Below, piece by piece: positions 29,420 to 36,590 of a DNA stretch of 64,000 bases (its first letter is position 1; each line of letters starts with the position of its first letter). A model generated the notes under the pieces. The model worked only from the letters and a program-made list of their open reading frames with translations. It had not been told where the DNA came from and made no database searches. Source of the DNA: Candidatus Brocadiaceae bacterium (lineage in GTDB: Bacteria > Planctomycetota > Brocadiia > SM23-32); assembly GCA_012728835.1 (NCBI GenBank), contig JAAYEJ010000045.1, positions 36,475 through 100,474 of the forward strand, given 5' to 3'. Position numbers and translations under genes: made by a program.

Positions 29420-29671
29420 CCTCGACGTTGTCGTATGCTGCCGGTGGTGTGCGCCGGCCCGGACGCTCAGGGCATCCCGGACCACTGCGACTACCCGGTT
29501 CACGACAGCAAGCTGGAGGGAATCAGCAACAGGATCAAGGTTGTCAAGCGCGGGGCCTACGGCCATCACGACGATCGCTGCTCTCCCCTGCAGGTCGATC
29601 AGGCATTCGACCCCGAACCGCCCGCACTTCTCAGGAGATGGACCTTTCCGAGAGCGGCCTCATCCCCCTGA
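29420..29671 (+). pseudogene. ISL3-family transposase, C-terminal remnant
   Basis: VHDSKLEGISNRIKVVKRGAYGHHDD matches the conserved ISL3 C-terminal block (EGxNNKIKxxKRxAYGFR). The rest of the transposase is absent. Confidence 0.55.
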
Positions 29672-29708
29672 GGCAGCCCGCTCCAGGAGTCCAGGCAAGG
29701 ATACGCTC

Positions 29709-31370
29709 ATGCACGCAGATGACGGGATCGGGGTGGAGGTGCGGGAGGCCGCGCGGATGGTGGTCCCGGAGGATGCGGCCATCTCCCCGCCGGCAACGAG
29801 ACTCGACCGTATCTTGCCCTGGGTGGTCGCCGGCATCGCCGTGTCCGCCGCCATTCTCGCTGTGAAGCTCACGCTCATCCGGCCCTACTGCACGGGCGAC
29901 TCGGCGAGCTACCTGGGCGCCGCGCGCAACCTGGCGGCAGGGCGGGGGCTGACGATCCCGTGGGGCACGCCGACCGACCGGCCGCTCGTACACTTCCCGC
30001 CGCTGTACCCCGCCGTGCTCGGCGCCGTCGGCTCCCTCGGGCCGGACCCCCTCGTTGTGAGCCGGTGGATGAACGCCGTGCTCCTGGGACTGAACGCTGC
30101 GCTCGCGGCGCTGGCCGTCTACGGCACGACCAGAAACCGGGCGCTCTCGTGCCTGGCGGCGGTGCTGATGGCCGCATCGCCCGTCATGCTGCGCATGCAT
30201 ACGGCGGCGCTGTCCGAGCCGCTGTTCGTCTTCCTCCTGCTGGCCGCGCTGGCGGCGCTGCACGCGTACGCCCGGCGGCCCAGTCGCCGGCTCTTCCTCC
30301 TCGCCTGTGACGCCACGGCGCTGGCGCTGCTGTGCCGCTGGGCGGGCGCGCCGCTGGTGGCAACGGGCGCTCTGGTCGTCTGCGCGTTTGGCGCGGGCGG
30401 CCTGTGGAAGCGGCTCGCGCGGGCGGCGGCGTTCGGGTTGCTCAGTTGCCTGCCCGCCGGCCTCTGGATGCTCAGGAACCTCCGGCTGGGCGGCACCGCG
30501 ACGAACAGGACGTGGGCGGCCCACCCGGTCACCCGACAGCAGATCGACGACGCGCTCCGCGCCGTCTCCGGATGGGGTGTGCCGGGGTTCCGGCCCGGCA
30601 CCACCCTGCAGCACTCGCTCATTCCGTTGGGGCTGCTCTGCCTGGCTGCCGTGTGCTTCGCTCTGTACCTCACGCTCCGGCGCGGGAACGTCCCGGTGGG
30701 GGAGCGGCTGCGCCACCTCCCCTGGGCGTACGCGGCCTTCCTCGTCACCTACTGCGCATTCCTCCTGGTCAGCGTCTCCTACTGCGACCGCCTGACGCCC
30801 CTGGACAACCGCATCCTGCTGCCCGCGTATGCGGCGTGGCTCGTGGGCGTGCTTGCGGTGTGGCCGGGCGCCTGGATGTGGGAGGCCCGGCGGTGGGCGG
30901 CGCGCAGGCTGCCCCTGCTGCCGTGGCTTGCCATAGCCGTGATGCAGGTGCACGCCGGCGCGCGATTCGCCGAGTTCGAGCACAACAGGACGCGCCTCTC
31001 GGCGAGTTCCTGGAACGTGCGGGAGACGCGCGCCGCCATGTCCGTGCCGTGGGACCGGCCGGTGTACAGCAACCGGCCGGAGGACTACTACATCTACGTG
31101 AACAAGGTCGTGAAGGAATGGCCTTCGCCGCTCGACGTGTGGTCGGGCCGTCCGGCGCCCGGCTACAAGGAGAAGCGCGACGCCGCCGTCCGGGAACTGA
31201 CGGAGTCCGGCGGGCGGCTCGTCCTGCTCGGCACGTCCATGAAGCCCTGGCTGGATCGCGACCAGATTCCGCAGGACGTGCCGCTGGTGCGGCTCCAGGA
31301 TGAGGGGAAGGTGCACGTCTACGCCGTGGGCACGCAGCCCGCGCGGCGGGGCTGGCCCTGGCAGAGGTAG
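29709..31370 (+). CDS. polytopic membrane protein, GT-C fold glycosyltransferase-like (PMT/ArnT family 39/83-like)
   Basis: At least 11 predicted TM helices with periplasmic loops. General similarity to ArnT/PMT_2 type proteins. The start is at the internal MHADDG (AAGGA RBS). Confidence 0.5.
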   Translation: MHADDGIGVEVREAARMVVPEDAAISPPATRLDRILPWVVAGIAVSAAILAVKLTLIRPYCTGDSASYLGAARNLAAGRGLTIPWGTPTDRPLVHFPPLYPAVLGAVGSLGPDPLVVSRWMNAVLLGLNAALAALAVYGTTRNRALSCLAAVLMAASPVMLRMHTAALSEPLFVFLLLAALAALHAYARRPSRRLFLLACDATALALLCRWAGAPLVATGALVVCAFGAGGLWKRLARAAAFGLLSCLPAGLWMLRNLRLGGTATNRTWAAHPVTRQQIDDALRAVSGWGVPGFRPGTTLQHSLIPLGLLCLAAVCFALYLTLRRGNVPVGERLRHLPWAYAAFLVTYCAFLLVSVSYCDRLTPLDNRILLPAYAAWLVGVLAVWPGAWMWEARRWAARRLPLLPWLAIAVMQVHAGARFAEFEHNRTRLSASSWNVRETRAAMSVPWDRPVYSNRPEDYYIYVNKVVKEWPSPLDVWSGRPAPGYKEKRDAAVRELTESGGRLVLLGTSMKPWLDRDQIPQDVPLVRLQDEGKVHVYAVGTQPARRGWPWQR

Positions 31371-31988
31371 CTGTCCCTGTTCGCGCGCGTCGGTCGCCGT
31401 CGTTCCGTCGCCCGGAGGTGTCCCCGCACGCAGTCGCGGGACTGGTTCCGCCGCGCCCTGAAGGCGGCCCTGGCGGACCTCACGGCAGATGGGCAGCGGA
31501 AGAAGAAGCAGTTGTCCAGCCGGCAAGGCGACCTGAAGGTGATGCAGGAGCGGCTGCTGAACGCCTACCTGGCCGGCGCGGTGGAGGAGCAGACCTTCCG
31601 AGCGAAGTCGGCGGAGCTGAAGGTCGAGCAGGAGAGGGCGGCGGAAGCGGTGGAGCGCGCTCGCGGGGACATGGACGCGTCTCGCGGGGACATGGCGCTA
31701 CGGGTCTTCGATTGGGCGCAAAGACTCGGGGAACTCTGGCGCGGTCTGAACATCGAGCGCCGGCGGGCGATTCTGGAGACGGTATGCTCCAACCGGCTGC
31801 TGGACGACGTAAGTCTGCGCCTGGAAAAGAGAAAGCCCTTCGAGGTTCTCGCCAAAGGGCCGGAATGCCAGAGTGGTACCCCCGACTGGCCACACTTCCA
31901 GCGCGCCGTGGCCGAATTCACCATAGCCTTCGAGCTCCCCCATCCATGCCTGCTGCGTGCTGACGAACTCGCACGCGAATGGCTCTGA
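31371..31988 (+). pseudogene. large serine recombinase, C-terminal coiled-coil region only (N-terminal catalytic domain missing)
   Basis: In-frame translation from 31371 gives ...LKAALADLTADGQRKKKQLSSRQGDLKVMQERLLNAYLAGAVEEQTFRAKSAELKVEQE... This is typical of the C-terminal coiled coil of large serine recombinases. The frame begins directly after the stop of the upstream gene. Confidence 0.5.
31787..31881 (+). repeat. direct repeat copy 1 (about 95 bp, about 84% identical to 33285..33379), inside the recombinase remnant
   Basis: tccaaccggctgctggacgacgtaagtct...ggccggaatgccagagtggtacccc. Confidence 0.8.
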
Positions 31989-32017
31989 GGTCGGCGTGGC
32001 TCGTTGTCGTCGCACAG

Positions 32018-32638
32018 TCATCGCCAGGTGATGGGCTTACGGAGTTCGTATCCGTCGGCCTTGAGCACCGGATCCGGCAATTGGCTTGCGGCTATTCGTG
32101 CCCGGTTGATGTGCAGAAAACCGCTTGCACGCCGCTGCAGTTCGGCGGAGTATCGTTTCGGAGGAAAAGCCACCACGACCTGCTTCTGCGGCCACTCGCG
32201 ACGGACCACCTGGACAGGGCCAGCAAGATCGCTGTCAGCGGACACGAGAAGTGCCGTGTCGAATTCACCGCGCATGGCGTCGAGAAGCATCTGCACTGCG
32301 ATGTTCACGTCGGTTCCCTTCTCCTCGTGGTCTGTCCACCGGTTCGAGCACTTGAAGCATGTCCGCTCCTTGTTGAGGTAGTGCCCGTAGTGGATGACGA
32401 TATCCGAATGCGCCTGGAGCGCCTCGAGGTAAGTATTCTGGCGGTGGGGCTTGTCTGGATCGGACGGTGTCCCTGACACGCGAGCCGTGAAGTAGTTGAC
32501 ACGTGCCAGCTCCTGGTGCGGTTTCAGAAGCGCTCGGATAAGACCTTCGATGTCCAGCCAAAGGAAGCGCTGCCAGCCAGCTTGCCGCAGGCCGAAGTAC
32601 AGGTTAAATCCGTCAATGTAGGCGACCAGCCGTTGCAC
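32018..32638 (-). CDS. NYN-domain (PIN-like) predicted ribonuclease
   Basis: VAYIDGFNLYFGL N-terminus and conserved acidic residues (DxD...SAD) typical of the NYN/LabA-like family. Confidence 0.6.
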   Translation of the reverse strand: MQRLVAYIDGFNLYFGLRQAGWQRFLWLDIEGLIRALLKPHQELARVNYFTARVSGTPSDPDKPHRQNTYLEALQAHSDIVIHYGHYLNKERTCFKCSNRWTDHEEKGTDVNIAVQMLLDAMRGEFDTALLVSADSDLAGPVQVVRREWPQKQVVVAFPPKRYSAELQRRASGFLHINRARIAASQLPDPVLKADGYELRKPITWR

Positions 32639-32737
32639 GTGGGCCCTCTAGAGCGGGAACGGATTCACCGGCCAGCGTCCCGACAGCGCCAGGACGAGAG
32701 CAGGCAAGCAAAGCAGAAGAAAAAGCGTGAGCCATGC

Positions 32738-32834
32738 TTGACGCCTGCTGCCGAGGCGGGTATTATACTAGAAGAAGCTGCCCCGCCAAGGATAGCATCC
32801 TTGGCTCAACGCCCCGAAAGGGGCGTTTCTTTGT
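32738..32834 (+). ncRNA. candidate small RNA: consensus promoter TTGACG-N17-TATTAT, about 60-nt transcript with two hairpins, the second a terminator-like stem-loop followed by TCTTTGT
   Basis: -35 at 32738-32743 and -10 at 32761-32766. Hairpin 1 CCAAGGAtagcaTCCTTGG at 32786-32804. Hairpin 2 AACGCCCCgaaaGGGGCGTT at 32808-32827 plus U-rich tail. AT-rich island in a 70% GC background. Confidence 0.3.
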
Positions 32835-33284
32835 ACCGCCGCAGCCTCTCAAGGCCCCTCGCTTACCTGGCCTGAACCTCCAGGGAGGTCACGTAGGTCT
32901 CCGTGTGGAGCCGCTGTTCGACCTCCGACAGGGACTACGTCAGCATCCTCGCGGCGTGGACGCGCTGCGACGTCAGACCCCGGCGACGGATAACGCGCAG
33001 GAGCGCCAGCACGGACGGGGAGGCGTGGCAGTGGCTGTGGAAGAATACATGCCTCTCGAAGGACGCGCTGAGAGACGCGAGTGGCGTGCCCGCCAAGAGG
33101 CTTGAGGCCAAGCTCGATGCGCTCATCGCGAACCGGATCATCTACCCGGATGGCACCGTCAACTCGTTCGTCGCGTTCTCCGGCTTCTCGGCGTTGACGC
33201 TCCTGCCCGGAACGCGCTGCATGCTCCCGTCGCGGCCAGCGCGCAGCCTGATTCCTAACCAGATTGGGCCGATGCGGCCCTCGT

Positions 33285-33379
33285 TCCAACCGTACCCTGG
33301 ACGACGTAAGTCTTTGCCTACAAAAGAGATGGCCCTTCGACGCGCTCGCCGAAGGGCCGGAATGCCAGGGTGGTACCCC
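33285..33379 (+). repeat. direct repeat copy 2 (3' end of the recombinase reading frame), overlapping the 3' end of tRNA-Arg on the opposite strand
   Basis: Translates in frame as LDDVSLCLQKRWPFDALAEGPECQGGTP..., matching copy 1's LDDVSLRLEKRKPFEVLAKGPECQSGTP. It ends in tggtacccc, the tRNA 3' end. Confidence 0.8.
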
Positions 33380-33446
33380 GTGCAGGATTCAAACCTGCGG
33401 CCTTCGGCTCCGGAGGCCGACGCTCTATTCGCTGAGCTAACGGGGC
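33371..33446 (-). tRNA. tRNA-Arg (anticodon CCG), CCA encoded
   Basis: Manual fold. Acceptor GCCCCGU/ACGGGGU, D-arm GCUC/GAGC, anticodon stem UCGGC/GCCGA with loop CUCCGGA, T-arm GCAGG-UUUGAAU-CCUGC, discriminator A, CCA. About 76 nt. Confidence 0.85.
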
Positions 33447-33579
33447 ACCGCTGAGGTCGATTATACAGCCCGGCGATGCTCTTGCCAAGCGCCCGCCCGG
33501 CGGTTGTCCGTCGGCAGGACTGCCCCCCCGACCCGCGGCCGAGGACGGCCGCGCGACTCCGTTGCTGTTGAAACGCTCG

Positions 33580-34941
33580 CTACCCGTCAGGGGCGGCGTC
33601 GGGCGGGTCGCCCGGCCGGCGGGTGCCTGCCATCACCTGGCGGAGCACTTCGAGGGCCCTCTCGAACTGCACGTCCCGGAAGTCCTTGCCCGGTTCGTCC
33701 GGCCCTTCGGGGATGTCTTCTTCCTCGGCGGCGGACTCCTCGGGCGGATGGGGCGGGTACTCGGTCTTCCGGGTCAGGAAGGTGTAGAGCTTGCGGTTCT
33801 CGGCGTCCGAGAGGCGCATCTCGATGTCCGGGACGACGCCCCTGCCCTCGATCATGTGGTCGTTCGGCGTGTAGTAGCGGGCGACGGTGAGTTTGATGGC
33901 GCTCTGGTTGTGGGGGTTGTCCATGACCTGCTGCACGCTCGCCTTGCCGTAGGTCGTCTCGCCAACCAGCACGGCGCGGCGGTGGTCCTGAAGGGCGCCG
34001 GCGACGATCTCCGAACCGCTGGCGCTCAGGCGGTTGACCAGCAGGACGAGGGGCAGGTCCAGGTCGGAGCGGGAACGGCGGGCCTCGTGCACGACCTCGT
34101 TCTGGCGGGGGGCGCGCACCGTGACGATCGCGCCGCCGTCGAGGAATCGGTCCGCCAGTGCGTTGGCCGCGTCGAGCAGGCCGCCCGGGTTGAAGCGCAG
34201 GTCCAGAATCAGGCCGCGCATGCCCTGGCGCTGCAGGTCCTCGAGGGCCGCCGCCAGGTCCTTGGAGACGGCTTCGCTGAAGTAGGGGATGTAGATGTAG
34301 CCGATCCGGTCTTCGTGGTCGATGATCTCCACGGCGCGGACGCCCGGGATCTTGATGATCTCGCGGGTGACGGTGATATCGCGCTCTTCCTCCTCCTCCT
34401 CCTCGCCGCGCAGGATCGTGATCGTGATCCGGGTGCCGGGCGGGCCGCGGAGGATCTCCAGCACCTCATGCACGTCCTTCATGTCGGCCACTTCGGTGAC
34501 CGTTCGGGTGGATTCTTCACGCACGCGGATGATGCGGTCGTGCGGCAGGACGCCGAGCCGGGCTGCCGGGGTGCCGGCGATCGGTTGCTCGACGTGGATG
34601 ACGCCGGCCGGCGGGTCGAAGGTGATCTGGATGCCCAGCCCCCCGAACTCCCCTTTCAGGTCGGCCTCGGTCTCCCGGCGCATGGCGGGCGGCCAGAAGG
34701 CGCTGTGCCGGTCGAGCTTGCTCATCATGCCCGCGCAGGCGCCCTCGAGCAGGGCCTCGTGGCTGATCTCATCGACCGAGCGGCCTTCGATCTCGCGCAC
34801 GAGCCACATGACCGGCTCGACGAAGCCCTCGATCAGGTCCGGCTGTTCGGCGGATCGGGCGGGAAGGGCCGCCGGCAGCAGCCCGAGCGCCAGCCCGGCG
34901 GCGACACCGATCCAGACATCTCGCATTGACCGTCGTCTCAT
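33580..34941 (-). CDS. S41-family C-terminal processing peptidase (CtpA/Prc-like)
   Basis: Signal peptide, PDZ region and S41 catalytic region (GGLLDAANALADRFL, LVNRLSASGSEIVAGALQD, LVGETTYGKASVQ). Confidence 0.85.
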   Translation of the reverse strand: MRRRSMRDVWIGVAAGLALGLLPAALPARSAEQPDLIEGFVEPVMWLVREIEGRSVDEISHEALLEGACAGMMSKLDRHSAFWPPAMRRETEADLKGEFGGLGIQITFDPPAGVIHVEQPIAGTPAARLGVLPHDRIIRVREESTRTVTEVADMKDVHEVLEILRGPPGTRITITILRGEEEEEEERDITVTREIIKIPGVRAVEIIDHEDRIGYIYIPYFSEAVSKDLAAALEDLQRQGMRGLILDLRFNPGGLLDAANALADRFLDGGAIVTVRAPRQNEVVHEARRSRSDLDLPLVLLVNRLSASGSEIVAGALQDHRRAVLVGETTYGKASVQQVMDNPHNQSAIKLTVARYYTPNDHMIEGRGVVPDIEMRLSDAENRKLYTFLTRKTEYPPHPPEESAAEEEDIPEGPDEPGKDFRDVQFERALEVLRQVMAGTRRPGDPPDAAPDG

Positions 34942-34950
34942 GGTTCCGTC

Positions 34951-36288
34951 CTATCCGGCGGCTGAGACCGCCGCCAGGGCTTCGGCGGGGACGGGTTCGA
35001 GTGCGCCGCGCAGGTGTTCGACGGCCCGCTGCAGCTGCACGTCCACAAACGGCTCCTGCGGTTCGGCGGCCGTCTCCGGGGCCGGGGGCCGGCTCGGGCC
35101 GGCGCGTCCGGCCAGGTGGGCGGCCAGCCGGCGGACGTCGTCCGGCGGGAGTTCCACGGCGACGTCGGGCGTGAGCCCGCCGCTTCTGGGGTCCTCGCGG
35201 TCGCGCTCGATCTCCTGGCCGTTGGGGCGCACGTAGTGGGCGACAGCCAGCCGGATCGTGCTGCCGTCGTATGGGCACCGGATGTCCATGCGCAGGCTGC
35301 CGCGGCCGAGCGTGGGCTCGCCCACGAGCGTCGCGCGGCCGTTGTCGGCCAGGGCGGCGGCCATCATCTCGGCGGCTTCGGCGGTGCGGACGTTCACCAG
35401 CAGGGCCAGCTTCATGTCCGGGAAGGCGTCTCCCGGTTCGGCGCTCTGCGAGACCTCGCGATCGCCGCGGCCCCGGGCGCTCAGGAGGACGCCCTCGTCG
35501 AGCAGCAGGTCGGCACACATCAGGGCCGCGTCGAGCGGTCCGCCGGGGTTGAAGCGCAGGTCCAGCACCGCCGACCGGGCGCCGAGGTCCTTGAGCTTCG
35601 CCAGGCCGTCGGAGATCAGACCGACCGTCCGTTCGTCGAAGTGCGTCAGGGCCATGTAGCCGATCTCCGGATCGGCATCCAGTATCTGAACGGCCTGGAC
35701 GCTCGGCGTCGGCGTCAGGGCGCGTGTCAGCTCCACCTCGCGCTCCGGCCGGCCGGGCCGCACGACGGTCAGGACGACCCGGGTGCCCGGTTCGCCACGG
35801 AGGGCGCGCACGGCGTCGTAGGTGGTGCGGAAGTCCTCGGCCTCAAGTTCCTCTCCGTCGGGCGTCTCCCGGATCTTGACGATGAAGTCGCCCGTGAGAA
35901 GCCCTTCCTGAAAGGCCGGGCGTCCCTGGATCGTGCCGTCGATGGCCACGACCTTGCCCAGGGGCAGGAAGCGGGCGGTCAGGCCCAGTTCGGGGACGGA
36001 GCCGCCGGCCGACCGGCCGTAGCGTTCGGTCATCTCGGCCGGCAGGTAGAGCCCGCCGGGGTCGACCTGCTCGATCATGCCCTGGTAGGCGCCCTCCAGG
36101 AGCAGGCTGCGGTCCACGTCTTCGACGTAGTAGCTCTCGATCTGATCCAGGAGCCACGTCAGGGGCCGGAAGAACTGCCGGACGAGCAGTTCGGACTCGC
36201 TCTCGTCGGCCCGCACGTACACCGCATGAACGGCGAGGCTCGCCGCAAGACCCAGCACGAGGCCCGCACAGATGCCCTTCCATCGCAT
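34951..36288 (-). CDS. S41-family C-terminal processing peptidase (paralog of 33580..34941)
   Basis: The same S41 motifs (LVGEPTLGRGSL). Signal peptide MRWKGICAGLVLGLAASLAVHA. GGGAGG RBS. Confidence 0.85.
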   Translation of the reverse strand: MRWKGICAGLVLGLAASLAVHAVYVRADESESELLVRQFFRPLTWLLDQIESYYVEDVDRSLLLEGAYQGMIEQVDPGGLYLPAEMTERYGRSAGGSVPELGLTARFLPLGKVVAIDGTIQGRPAFQEGLLTGDFIVKIRETPDGEELEAEDFRTTYDAVRALRGEPGTRVVLTVVRPGRPEREVELTRALTPTPSVQAVQILDADPEIGYMALTHFDERTVGLISDGLAKLKDLGARSAVLDLRFNPGGPLDAALMCADLLLDEGVLLSARGRGDREVSQSAEPGDAFPDMKLALLVNVRTAEAAEMMAAALADNGRATLVGEPTLGRGSLRMDIRCPYDGSTIRLAVAHYVRPNGQEIERDREDPRSGGLTPDVAVELPPDDVRRLAAHLAGRAGPSRPPAPETAAEPQEPFVDVQLQRAVEHLRGALEPVPAEALAAVSAAG

Positions 36289-36590
36289 GACGGCCTCACC
36301 TCCCGGCTCGAGGCACACACGCCCCCCTCGTGTTGTCGATGATACGGCAGCCCGGAGGGACCGTCAAGCGTGGCGCGGCACCCATCGCCGCCCTTCGGGG
36401 CCGGGGAGTCCGTGCCAAGGCGCCTCCGCGCACGAACGCGCTGGCACGTCCGCGGGCATTCTGGTAGGCTTGTCATGTCCTGGGAGCCGCTCTTCACACC
36501 CCCTGCAGGCCCGACGCGGCGCCCGCCCCCGATGGTCGCTACTCATGAGGTCCCGAGATGGTGCCGAGATCAGGACGGCCGGCCGACACA

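Follow-up and report, generated by a model that had tools for sequence, protein, structure and literature searches.

Large serine recombinase remnants at a tRNA-Arg(CCG) gene of a Candidatus Brocadiaceae bacterium: a probable scar of two side-by-side integrations

Results

Overall organization of the locus

The window analyzed in this study is a 64,000-nucleotide (nt) stretch of contig JAAYEJ010000045.1 (assembly GCA_012728835.1, positions 36,475 to 100,474 of the forward strand) from a Candidatus Brocadiaceae bacterium, and the locus described here, at positions 31371 to 33446 of the window, holds a tRNA-Arg(CCG) gene, two 3' fragments of large serine recombinase (LSR) genes, and an interior with genes of its own (Table 1). 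A repeat search found a direct repeat of 95 nt in two copies that are 84% identical and lie 1497 nt apart from start to start. The last 21 nt of the repeat, GGAATGCCAGRGTGGTACCCC, occur exactly twice in the window, and 100 shuffled sequences contained no copy. The tRNA gene, which is the only one in the window, was called by ARAGORN and scored 66 bits against RF00005 of Rfam; a search of positions 30000-35000 with relaxed Rfam thresholds returned nothing besides this tRNA, including no match for the small-RNA unit described below. Repeat copy 2 covers the tRNA gene's 3' end over 9 nt, where TGGTACCCC is the antisense of GGGGTACCA. An earlier note on this DNA had reported the repeat with its 84% identity, a second copy 1.4 kb downstream, a convergent tRNA-Arg(CCG), and a shared core at the tRNA 3' end; its coordinates and peptides proved correct, copy 2 runs antisense into an intact tRNA gene, and TGGTACCCC, which ends copy 2, is complementary to the last nine tRNA bases. 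The signature of Islander-type islands, i.e., an intact tRNA gene together with a displaced second TGGTACCCC at 31874-31882, is present, and it is likewise found at locus L088, where the outer flank does not belong to the element.

Table 1. Features of the tRNA-Arg(CCG) locus (window coordinates)
Feature	Coordinates	Strand	Description
3' fragment of LSR gene 1, pseudogene	31407..31882	+	Residues ~340-495 of a ~499-531-residue protein; tblastn against P0005 and P0106; homologues P0002-P0004
Repeat copy 1	31788..31882	+	P arm (last LSR codons) and core TGGTACCCC at 31874-31882
Terminator-type hairpin in repeat copy 1	31834..31861	-	T-run follows on the minus strand; relic, no tRNA upstream
P' arm of inner element	31883..31988	+	35-codon non-tRNA tail (DWPHFQRAVAEF...AREWL, stop) of the recombinase open reading frame; homologous to the P0005/L006 tail and L088 attL
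NYN-domain (MARF1-like) RNase gene	32018..32638	-	PF01936, E = 1.6e-12; phrog_7929, E = 3.9e-40; GC content ~0.60
Small-RNA unit (putative)	32738..32837	+	Promoter TTGACG-17-TATTAT at 32738-32766; hairpin B at 32785-32805; terminator hairpin A at 32808-32827; U-run; divergent from NYN
Frameshifted pseudogene	32850..33258	+	Conserved hypothetical family of ~135-143 residues; at least 2 frameshifts; 83% identical to P0123
Repeat copy 2	33285..33379	+	P-arm stub of LSR gene 2 (residues ~464-495) and core, fused to the tRNA; attR junction
Intrinsic terminator of tRNA-Arg transcript, predicted	33321..33358	-	Antisense to recombinase codons KRWPFDALAEGP; 12-bp hairpin 33358-33331 followed by ATCTCTTTTG
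tRNA-Arg(CCG), intact	33371..33446	-	Last 9 nt, GGGGTACCA, are the shared core

On the 5' side, the tRNA gene is adjoined by tandem paralogous genes for S41 C-terminal processing peptidases (PDZ and Peptidase_S41 domains; 33580-34941 and 34951-36318, both on the minus strand), and the synteny of this pair is common to the window and loci L089, L090, L091, and L109.

Recombinase fragments and the family to which they belong

In tblastn searches with full-length LSRs, window positions 31422-31979 aligned with residues 345-529 of P0005 (48% identity, E = 1e-45) and positions 33285-33437 with residues 464-514 of P0106 (76% identity); as judged by this homology, both repeats are the 3' ends of an LSR gene. 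The P0005 match, together with relatives that carry PF00239, PF07508, and PF13408, bears out the earlier view that the open reading frame (ORF) at 31371-31988 encodes only the C-terminal part of such an enzyme. True homology begins near 31407 rather than at the ORF start, and a frame comparison places indels in its first ~30 nt (31408-31436). The ORF itself (205 codons) has no match in Pfam or NCBIfam beyond noise (OmpH and PhyR), and the family was reached through its four metagenomic homologues and then through a composite alignment. One homologue, P0003 (locus L001), is encoded by a truncated gene whose start lies in a zinc-ribbon-like segment and whose end reads through tRNA-Arg(CCG), and P0004 (locus L002) comes from a contig with frameshifted resolvase and recombinase-domain pieces and ends in tRNA-Pro(CGG).

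The N-terminal two-thirds of LSR gene 1 are gone, removed by a deletion that reaches to the stop codon of the PMT-like gene upstream (29541-31370). Repeat copy 1 is continuous with ~380 nt more of recombinase coding sequence upstream, and copy 2 is a stub only; what the window keeps is the coiled-coil and C-terminal part that follows the zinc ribbon, PF07508 and PF13408 being seen in the full-length relatives. The PF00239 Resolvase domain, which contains the serine nucleophile, was not detected by Pfam in either fragment, the homology of which spans only residues ~340-529 and ~464-514, yet it is present in the full-length relatives, and the window copies are therefore pseudogene remnants of LSR family members. 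There is no other LSR match in the 64-kb window, and a search of the island for a functional integrase gene yielded truncated fragments only. Both recombinases are dead, the elements are immobile, and the locus is an inactive, partly exapted remnant.

The hairpin and T-run within the 95-nt repeat would also suit a dispersed repeat of the REP-like (repetitive extragenic palindromic) or terminator type that resembles a recombinase end by chance. However, there are just two copies in 64 kb, copy 1 runs without a break into the upstream recombinase codons, and hundreds of full-length LSR genes have the same sequence as their in-frame 3' end; these three observations refute that reading, to which we assign virtually no probability. 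A REP-like repeat or a lack of recombinase homologues had been named in the earlier note as outcomes that would speak against its proposal, and neither was found; homologues are abundant and include intact genes and tandem arrays (L075 and L066).

The composite alignment retrieved 692 relatives at E < 1e-5, the best of which are ~499-residue proteins with PF00239, PF07508, and PF13408. Among the GTDB species genomes, the family occupies 219 loci, nearly all of them in Planctomycetota, e.g., in Symmachiella dynata; the locus counts given here cover the 80 of these 219 loci that were fetched, with S. dynata (L007) counted separately. The LSR ORF ends inside a convergent (minus-strand) tRNA gene in 54 of the 80 loci and also in S. 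dynata, and its stop codon typically lies 19 nt within the tRNA gene. The targets are mostly tRNA-Pro genes (CGG, GGG, and TGG) and include Gln-CTG, Arg-TCG, and Met-CAT. A minor Arg(CCG) branch comprises the window, P0003, P0106, P0108, L088, and L109, and independent remnants that end in a tRNA were found at tRNA-Arg(CCG) in L001, L088, and L109 and at tRNA-Pro in L002. Almost all of the 121 proteins examined share the C terminus ...KRKPFDxLAERPxLKNSRGDRI, the last codons of which are, at the DNA level, the antisense of the tRNA acceptor stem and T-arm, with the TGA in GGATTTGAACC as the stop. The crossover point lies within the LSR ORF, and in the integrated state the tRNA gene supplies the last ~6 LSR codons and the stop codon (TGA, antisense of the T-loop).

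Of the other contigs among the 80 loci, several break off at the LSR/tRNA point. Many assembled contigs, among them L013, L028, L029, L049, L055, L071, and L078, end within a few bases of the junction, which fits assembly breaks at a site that exists in several states or at a repeated tRNA. The family is large and apparently undescribed; a literature search found no account of a Planctomycetota LSR clade or of a dual-coded terminator, although its coverage was incomplete and the absence is weak evidence.

Other features of the family were observed along the way. An ORF of ~80 codons ends at or overlaps the start codon of nearly every LSR of the family (9756-9998 in L007 and nearly all of L008-L087); its product carries the motif WITDELLxETRRVWSxxYGRxISxxEAVEILxNVKRLAEVL, has no match in Pfam, PHROG, or PADLOC, and is a candidate recombination directionality factor or regulator. 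This ORF is not present in the window, and the ORF at 32903, which was compared with it as a possible homologue, is not one. The LSR match spans ~2350 nt instead of the usual ~1480 nt in L076 (10001-12348) and L082 (2279-4629), which suggests an insertion of ~870 nt inside the recombinase gene. In six loci (L018, L027, L047, L053, L067, and L070), the T-arm-like sequence in which the LSR ends has the usual offset, yet no tRNA is called there by ARAGORN, and divergence sets in after the T-arm or the anticodon arm; these ends may be truncated tRNAs, secondary insertions, or attP arms with longer tRNA-derived segments.

Junction types and attachment-site geometry

In a four-way alignment, repeat copy 1, repeat copy 2, L006 (which encodes the full-length P0005), and L001 agree up to GTGGTACCCC and split exactly after TGGTACCCC. 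Beyond this core, copy 2 and L001 run on as tRNA, and copy 1 and L006 share another, mutually homologous sequence. Copy 2 is an attR junction consisting of LSR end, core, and tRNA, whereas copy 1 is an attP-like junction consisting of LSR end, core TGGTACCCC, and the far arm P' of the next element. The earlier interpretation of the repeat as duplicated recombinase 3' ends stands in that both copies are LSR ends, and it is refined in that they represent different types of junction.

The same two types recur in the family. Most LSR ends are tRNA-derived (SRGDRI plus stop, or GTPCRIQTC...), versus ~12 proteins or loci with conserved non-tRNA tails that fall into groups such as [CW]RxFEP...F and that we read as putative attP-type junctions with P arm, core, and P' arm. 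At such a junction, the LSR reads into P' and gains ~30-40 other residues. The T-loop motif TT[TC][GA]A[AG]C begins at offset 58 from the K-P-F codons in 51 of 51 tRNA (attR) junctions, and in 7 of 10 attP-like junctions GAAC lies exactly 5 nt further outward after the shared ...GTCGGGGCGACTGG; the Arg-type attP of L006 shows this shift too, and in the P' arm of window copy 1 the T-loop mimic, decayed to TTCCAGCG, lies 5 nt further from the core than its tRNA counterpart. A zinc-ribbon-domain motif that is 5 bp further out in attP than in attB has been proposed as the site discriminator of the LI integrase and other LSRs (PMC3783163). Because the outward shift of attP matches this geometry, the deduced sites of the family behave as LSR sites should. 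The identity shared by attP and attB ranges from 9 nt (Arg type) to ~14 nt (Pro type).

The TGA of the T-loop is in frame when the element is integrated (R-I-stop) and out of frame in attP (F-E-P), and the excised form therefore encodes a longer protein. With an ORF that spans the crossover, the integrated and excised forms would have different C termini, and a functional difference between them is a prediction. The differences between P' tails at the first, second, and third codon positions number 8/11/24 for the window and L088 and 2/2/7 for L065 and L081, and this third-position bias is modest evidence that attP-type tails are translated. By analogy with intP/intX of Mx8 and with the streptococcal rumA integrative and conjugative elements (ICEs), isoforms with and without the tail may differ in activity.

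Intact arrays that combine both junction types are found in L075 (complete genome of Planctomycetales ZRK34, CP050848) and L066, each with two LSR genes ~10 kb apart, the upstream one with a non-tRNA tail and the downstream one ending in tRNA-Pro. L009 is a partly decayed array, in which the upstream LSR is a decayed stub and the downstream gene is intact. The window has the same architecture as these tandem arrays, after decay. The earlier note had attributed the pattern to repeated integration and decay of an element whose integrase 3' end overlaps attP in a tRNA gene, and the 54 loci of 80 in which an LSR ORF runs into a tRNA, together with the arrays of L075, L066, and L009, support this.

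A local segmental duplication, homologous recombination of an incoming element with a resident one, or integration of a dimer would also leave a repeat. In favor of such origins, canonical LSRs do not target attR or attL (PMC3783163), and the P arms of L075 are nearly identical (a 23-nt exact match plus matching flanks), which fits dimer integration or Campbell-type homologous recombination. In L066, however, the tandem recombinases are clearly different proteins with different P arms, and at least some arrays are therefore heterologous. The window copies are only 84% identical, and what follows the first core is not a duplicated tRNA or flank but a genuine P' arm, which L006 and L088 also have. 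We regard a duplication or dimer as quite improbable for the window.

When displaced tRNA ends were sought by exact matching upstream of 55 LSRs, only the L075 array came up, most elements exceeding the 10-kb flank or having cores that are too short. Candidate attL sites 5-6 kb upstream of the LSRs of L051, L055, and L071, suggested by weak tblastn matches of tail peptides, were rejected, being located in a conserved cargo gene and lacking a core. In L030 (6450-6530 and 9716-9790), the non-tRNA tail of the LSR has a second copy (92% protein identity) 3.2 kb downstream of the LSR gene, which is another layout with a repeated junction. The complete ~10-kb element between the two LSR genes of L075 (1267-11478) encodes a fused prohead protease/major capsid protein (phrog_4523, E = 3.8e-73) and an AAA_25/DUF669 helicase-primase-like protein, with little else that is recognizably viral; such a size is small for a phage, and the element may be satellite-like. 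The cargo of S. dynata differs from that of L075 and includes ParB-methyltransferase and HARE-HTH genes.

Predicted terminator in the recombinase codons

On the tRNA strand, a GC-rich hairpin followed by TTTCTCTTT lies 12-22 nt past the tRNA end in 59 of 59 sequences folded, and in the window the hairpin (33358-33331) starts 13 nt past the tRNA end. The arms of the hairpin are the codons for (K)PFD and AE(R/G)P, and the T-run is the antisense of E-K-R-K. In an alignment of 47 loci, 96.5% of the cells are paired and 6 of the 11 pairs are altered on both sides; these values were matched in none of 500 shuffles, and slid registers came nowhere near them. One pair (GC in 31 loci, CG in 11, and UG in 5) couples the third, synonymous position of the Pro codon to whether the residue is R or G. 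The pair 33-42 is G.U in 40 of 47 loci, which can pair on the tRNA strand alone. Covariation gives the terminator hairpin strong support that falls short of proof.

The decay that left the stub beside the tRNA is old. L109, an orthologous locus that shares the S41 synteny, has the same stub with the same truncation point (residue ~464). From TGGACGACG onward, the stubs of the window and L109 are identical at 66 of 73 positions, with 71% DNA identity in the neighboring S41 gene, and one of the differences between the stubs is a compensatory change from C-G to T-A in the stem. The stub is shared by descent with L109, and because the truncation point is common to both, its deletion predates their divergence.

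Integration at this site would separate the tRNA from its native terminator, a displaced candidate for which is seen in L088, where the outer flank carries a hairpin of its own. The element would compensate in that the KRKPFDxLAE(R/G)P codons, transcribed on the tRNA strand, would give a hairpin and T-run as a replacement terminator, and this role would keep the 95-nt stub while the rest of the recombinase gene was lost. The stub probably survives by providing the terminator of the tRNA.

Interior genes and the small-RNA unit

The interior (31883-33284) has a GC content of 0.60 versus ~0.70 in the flanks, and this, together with the match of the NYN protein to a phage protein family, indicates a foreign origin. 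The NYN-domain nuclease gene that the earlier note had placed between the repeats is borne out by PF01936, and its product matches the PADLOC candidate HEC-09 over the full length of the model (PDLC04163, E = 1.2e-85, residues 1-206 versus 1-203 of 203). The pseudogene at 32850-33258 is absent from that note. In L107-L110, an intact gene of 135-143 codons from the same family has a DUF523/PF04463 gene before it and the same P-arm stub and tRNA-Arg after it. DUF523/PF04463 is the 2-thiouracil desulfurase family, and in more distant genomes the gene for the 135-143-residue protein adjoins genes for SPL (PF20903) and ParB-methyltransferase (L111-L115). Neither at the DNA nor at the protein level do the 80 LSR loci contain a match to the NYN gene, the pseudogene, or the inner segment, which are therefore not standard cargo of the family.

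A promoter and terminator forming a small-RNA-like unit had also been proposed between the repeats. Both elements are confirmed, and a second promoter on the minus strand (32789-32762), which overlaps the first, faces the NYN gene. The region folds at -31.1 kcal/mol (z = -4.2). A block of ~95 nt hardly varies among five related loci, whereas the NYN proteins there differ by 22-25%. The block is transcribed away from NYN and comprises a near-consensus promoter, a hairpin of 9 bp with a loop of 3 nt, and, after a 2-4-nt spacer, a terminator hairpin with U-run. Distant NYN homologues (34-53% identity) have a two-hairpin unit at the NYN start with other stem sequences and in either orientation, on IMG/VR contigs, a Thermus oshimai plasmid, a Leptospira plasmid, and a phage contig. 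In hairpin B, 94% of the cells are paired and 6 of 9 pairs are changed on both sides, in an alignment anchored on the hairpin, which favors structure. No clear two-hairpin unit was seen at four more distant NYN homologues (L118, L121, L123, and L124). Comparison of these loci supports a putative small-RNA-like unit, and an antitoxin, a decoy, or a regulator of the RNase are among the possible roles of the RNA. The unit was observed in the window and in L088, L089, L091, L092, L093-L095, L097, L099, L101, L105, L117, L119, and L120, a set that spans Planctomycetota, Thermus, Leptospira, and phage contigs.

Discussion

History of the locus

We interpret the locus as the scar of two mobile elements that integrated side by side in the 3' end of tRNA-Arg(CCG), each by way of an LSR whose own 3' end holds the attachment site, and we assign this reading a probability of roughly 0.85. 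From right to left, the order would be tRNA-Arg, the core, the 95-nt stub of LSR gene 2 (attR), and the interior of the inner element, which comprises, in the same direction, the pseudogene, the small-RNA unit, and the NYN/HEC-09 gene; further leftward would follow the P' arm of the inner element, the second core, and the last ~475 nt of LSR gene 1, deleted up to the PMT-like gene.

L088 has an element of the inner type alone, i.e., tRNA, P-arm stub, small-RNA unit and NYN gene, P' tail, and GGTGGTACCA, followed by a different flank. Because the inner unit occurs there by itself, the inner element has a genuine P'/core boundary that does not depend on LSR gene 1. That NYN might simply be a native neighbor of tRNA-Arg, as L089 and L090 had suggested, was rejected for the window and L088, where the P stub is on one side of the gene and the P'-core junction on the other.

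The unit in L088, which has no LSR and spans ~1.1 kb between the tRNA core and a second core with another outer flank, also bears on an alternative in which the inner 1.5-kb unit (P', NYN, small RNA, pseudogene, and P stub) is a nonautonomous miniature element with both arms, moved in trans by a helper LSR such as gene 1, that landed separately in the genomes of the window and L088. The third-position bias between the P' tails of the two loci (8/11/24) is consistent with this, since it suggests divergence while the tail was still translated, as is the occurrence of the NYN module at an unrelated site in L092. On the other hand, the truncation point at residue ~464 and the S41 synteny are common to the window and L109, for which vertical inheritance of an old deletion is simpler; the interiors of the window and L088 are unequal in length; the T-loop mimic has decayed in the window P' arm; and no circular or multicopy form was seen. 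A miniature element is in our estimation unlikely, at about one chance in five, and two side-by-side integrations followed by decay remain the preferred account.

Several observations weigh against that account. L089 and L090, which share the S41 synteny, have the NYN module ~1 kb from tRNA-Arg(CCG) with a native-looking terminator and no P arm; there (8941-9848 in L089 and 2650-3556 in L090), a DUF523 gene lies between NYN and the tRNA, the discriminator is G73 instead of A73, and only a doubtful P' remnant is seen. This state, which may be ancestral, reverted, or rearranged, implies a history of the interior more complex than a pair of clean integrations. Canonical LSRs recombine only attP with attB, and insertion beside a resident element, into attR or attL, is therefore not expected; repeated integration, trans-mobilization of a mini-element that lacks an LSR, or another process may account for the tandem arrays. 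The sequences in the covariation test are mutually related and constrained by coding, and the terminator function and the isoform switch are predictions from sequence. For the window genome, no excised form, intact recombinase, or unambiguous empty site was found.

Significance

At the level of the family, our picture is tentative and, taken as a whole, stands at slightly less than even odds: a widespread clade of Planctomycetota LSRs would use tRNA 3' ends as attB and carry attP in its own last codons, such that ~60 nt would encode the C-terminal peptide, restore the acceptor end, and supply the terminator; the register shift would alter a tail of 30-40 residues; and the HEC-09 NYN protein would be one half of a two-part module with a small RNA. 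If so, the difference in the tail could bias the directionality of recombination, and the dual-coded terminator would be a clear example of an element that repairs the gene it disrupts. The enzymes are attractive for integrase prospecting because attP lies in the 3' end of the gene itself, so that attP and attB can be read from genomes. For the window, the two-element scar would explain a recombinase fragment annotated as a hypothetical protein, the source of the NYN/HEC-09 gene, and the conservation of the 95-nt stub by tRNA-Arg. The locus itself is a fossil, and the mechanism of the family and the lead on an NYN-associated small RNA matter more.

Comparison with known systems

By its domains and site geometry, the family is a standard LSR family, and its tRNA target is unusual. 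Like the integrases of Bxb1, phiC31, A118 (LI), and SPbeta, its members have Resolvase, Recombinase, and zinc-ribbon domains with a coiled-coil, and the attP motif is, as in the LI integrase, 5 nt further from the center than that of attB (PMC3783163). They differ from known LSRs in that attP lies inside the last codons of the recombinase, attP and attB share ~9-14 nt, and heterologous tandem arrays occur; the window itself holds only dead C-terminal fragments. A 2022 survey of LSRs defined targets as clusters of protein genes, and tRNA is not mentioned in its main text (PMC10083194).

The filamentous phiRSM phages of Ralstonia integrate in the 3' end of tRNA-Ser(UCG) in reverse orientation by means of the serine recombinase ORF14 and a 13-nt core (PMC3816273). 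The likeness to the Planctomycetota family lies in a serine recombinase that targets a tRNA 3' end; the phiRSM enzyme, however, is a small one of the resolvase/invertase type from an unrelated protein family and a different phylum, and its attP is intergenic. The islands detected by Islander and TIGER resemble the present locus in that the tRNA is intact, the element regenerates its 3' end, and a displaced copy of that end marks the far boundary (PMC4383910). Only tyrosine integrases were known to target tRNA genes at the time of the Islander paper in 2015 (PMC4383910), whereas the integrase of the family is a serine recombinase and the repeat is lengthened by the 3' end of the recombinase gene. 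The small phiRSM enzyme is the one exception that could be documented here.

In Mx8 (intP/intX, a tyrosine integrase) and the streptococcal rumA ICEs (serine integrases), the att site lies within the integrase gene and integration changes the C terminus (PMC4701971), as is also the case for the present family. The differences are that the partner of the family is a tRNA gene read in antisense, that the switch works by moving the register 5 nt across a T-loop mimic (in-frame TGA versus F-E-P), and that the shared codons also encode the predicted terminator.

The NYN protein of the window matches the HEC-09 model from end to end, and the adjacent small-RNA unit does not appear in the passages of the preprint that deal with "HEC-09" or "NYN" (bioRxiv 10.1101/2024.01.29.577857). 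According to those parts of the same source, HEC-09 gave no protection against any phage tested; as a conjecture only, a small-RNA partner may explain this lack of a defense phenotype. Type III toxin-antitoxin systems of the ToxIN type combine an antitoxin RNA of tandem repeats, a terminator, and an endoribonuclease of the ToxN fold. The RNA predicted in the window, in contrast, is a single two-hairpin unit without repeats, the protein is NYN and not ToxN, and the unit is divergent from the gene in the group to which the window belongs, so that the likeness to ToxIN is confined to the homologues in which unit and gene are co-oriented.

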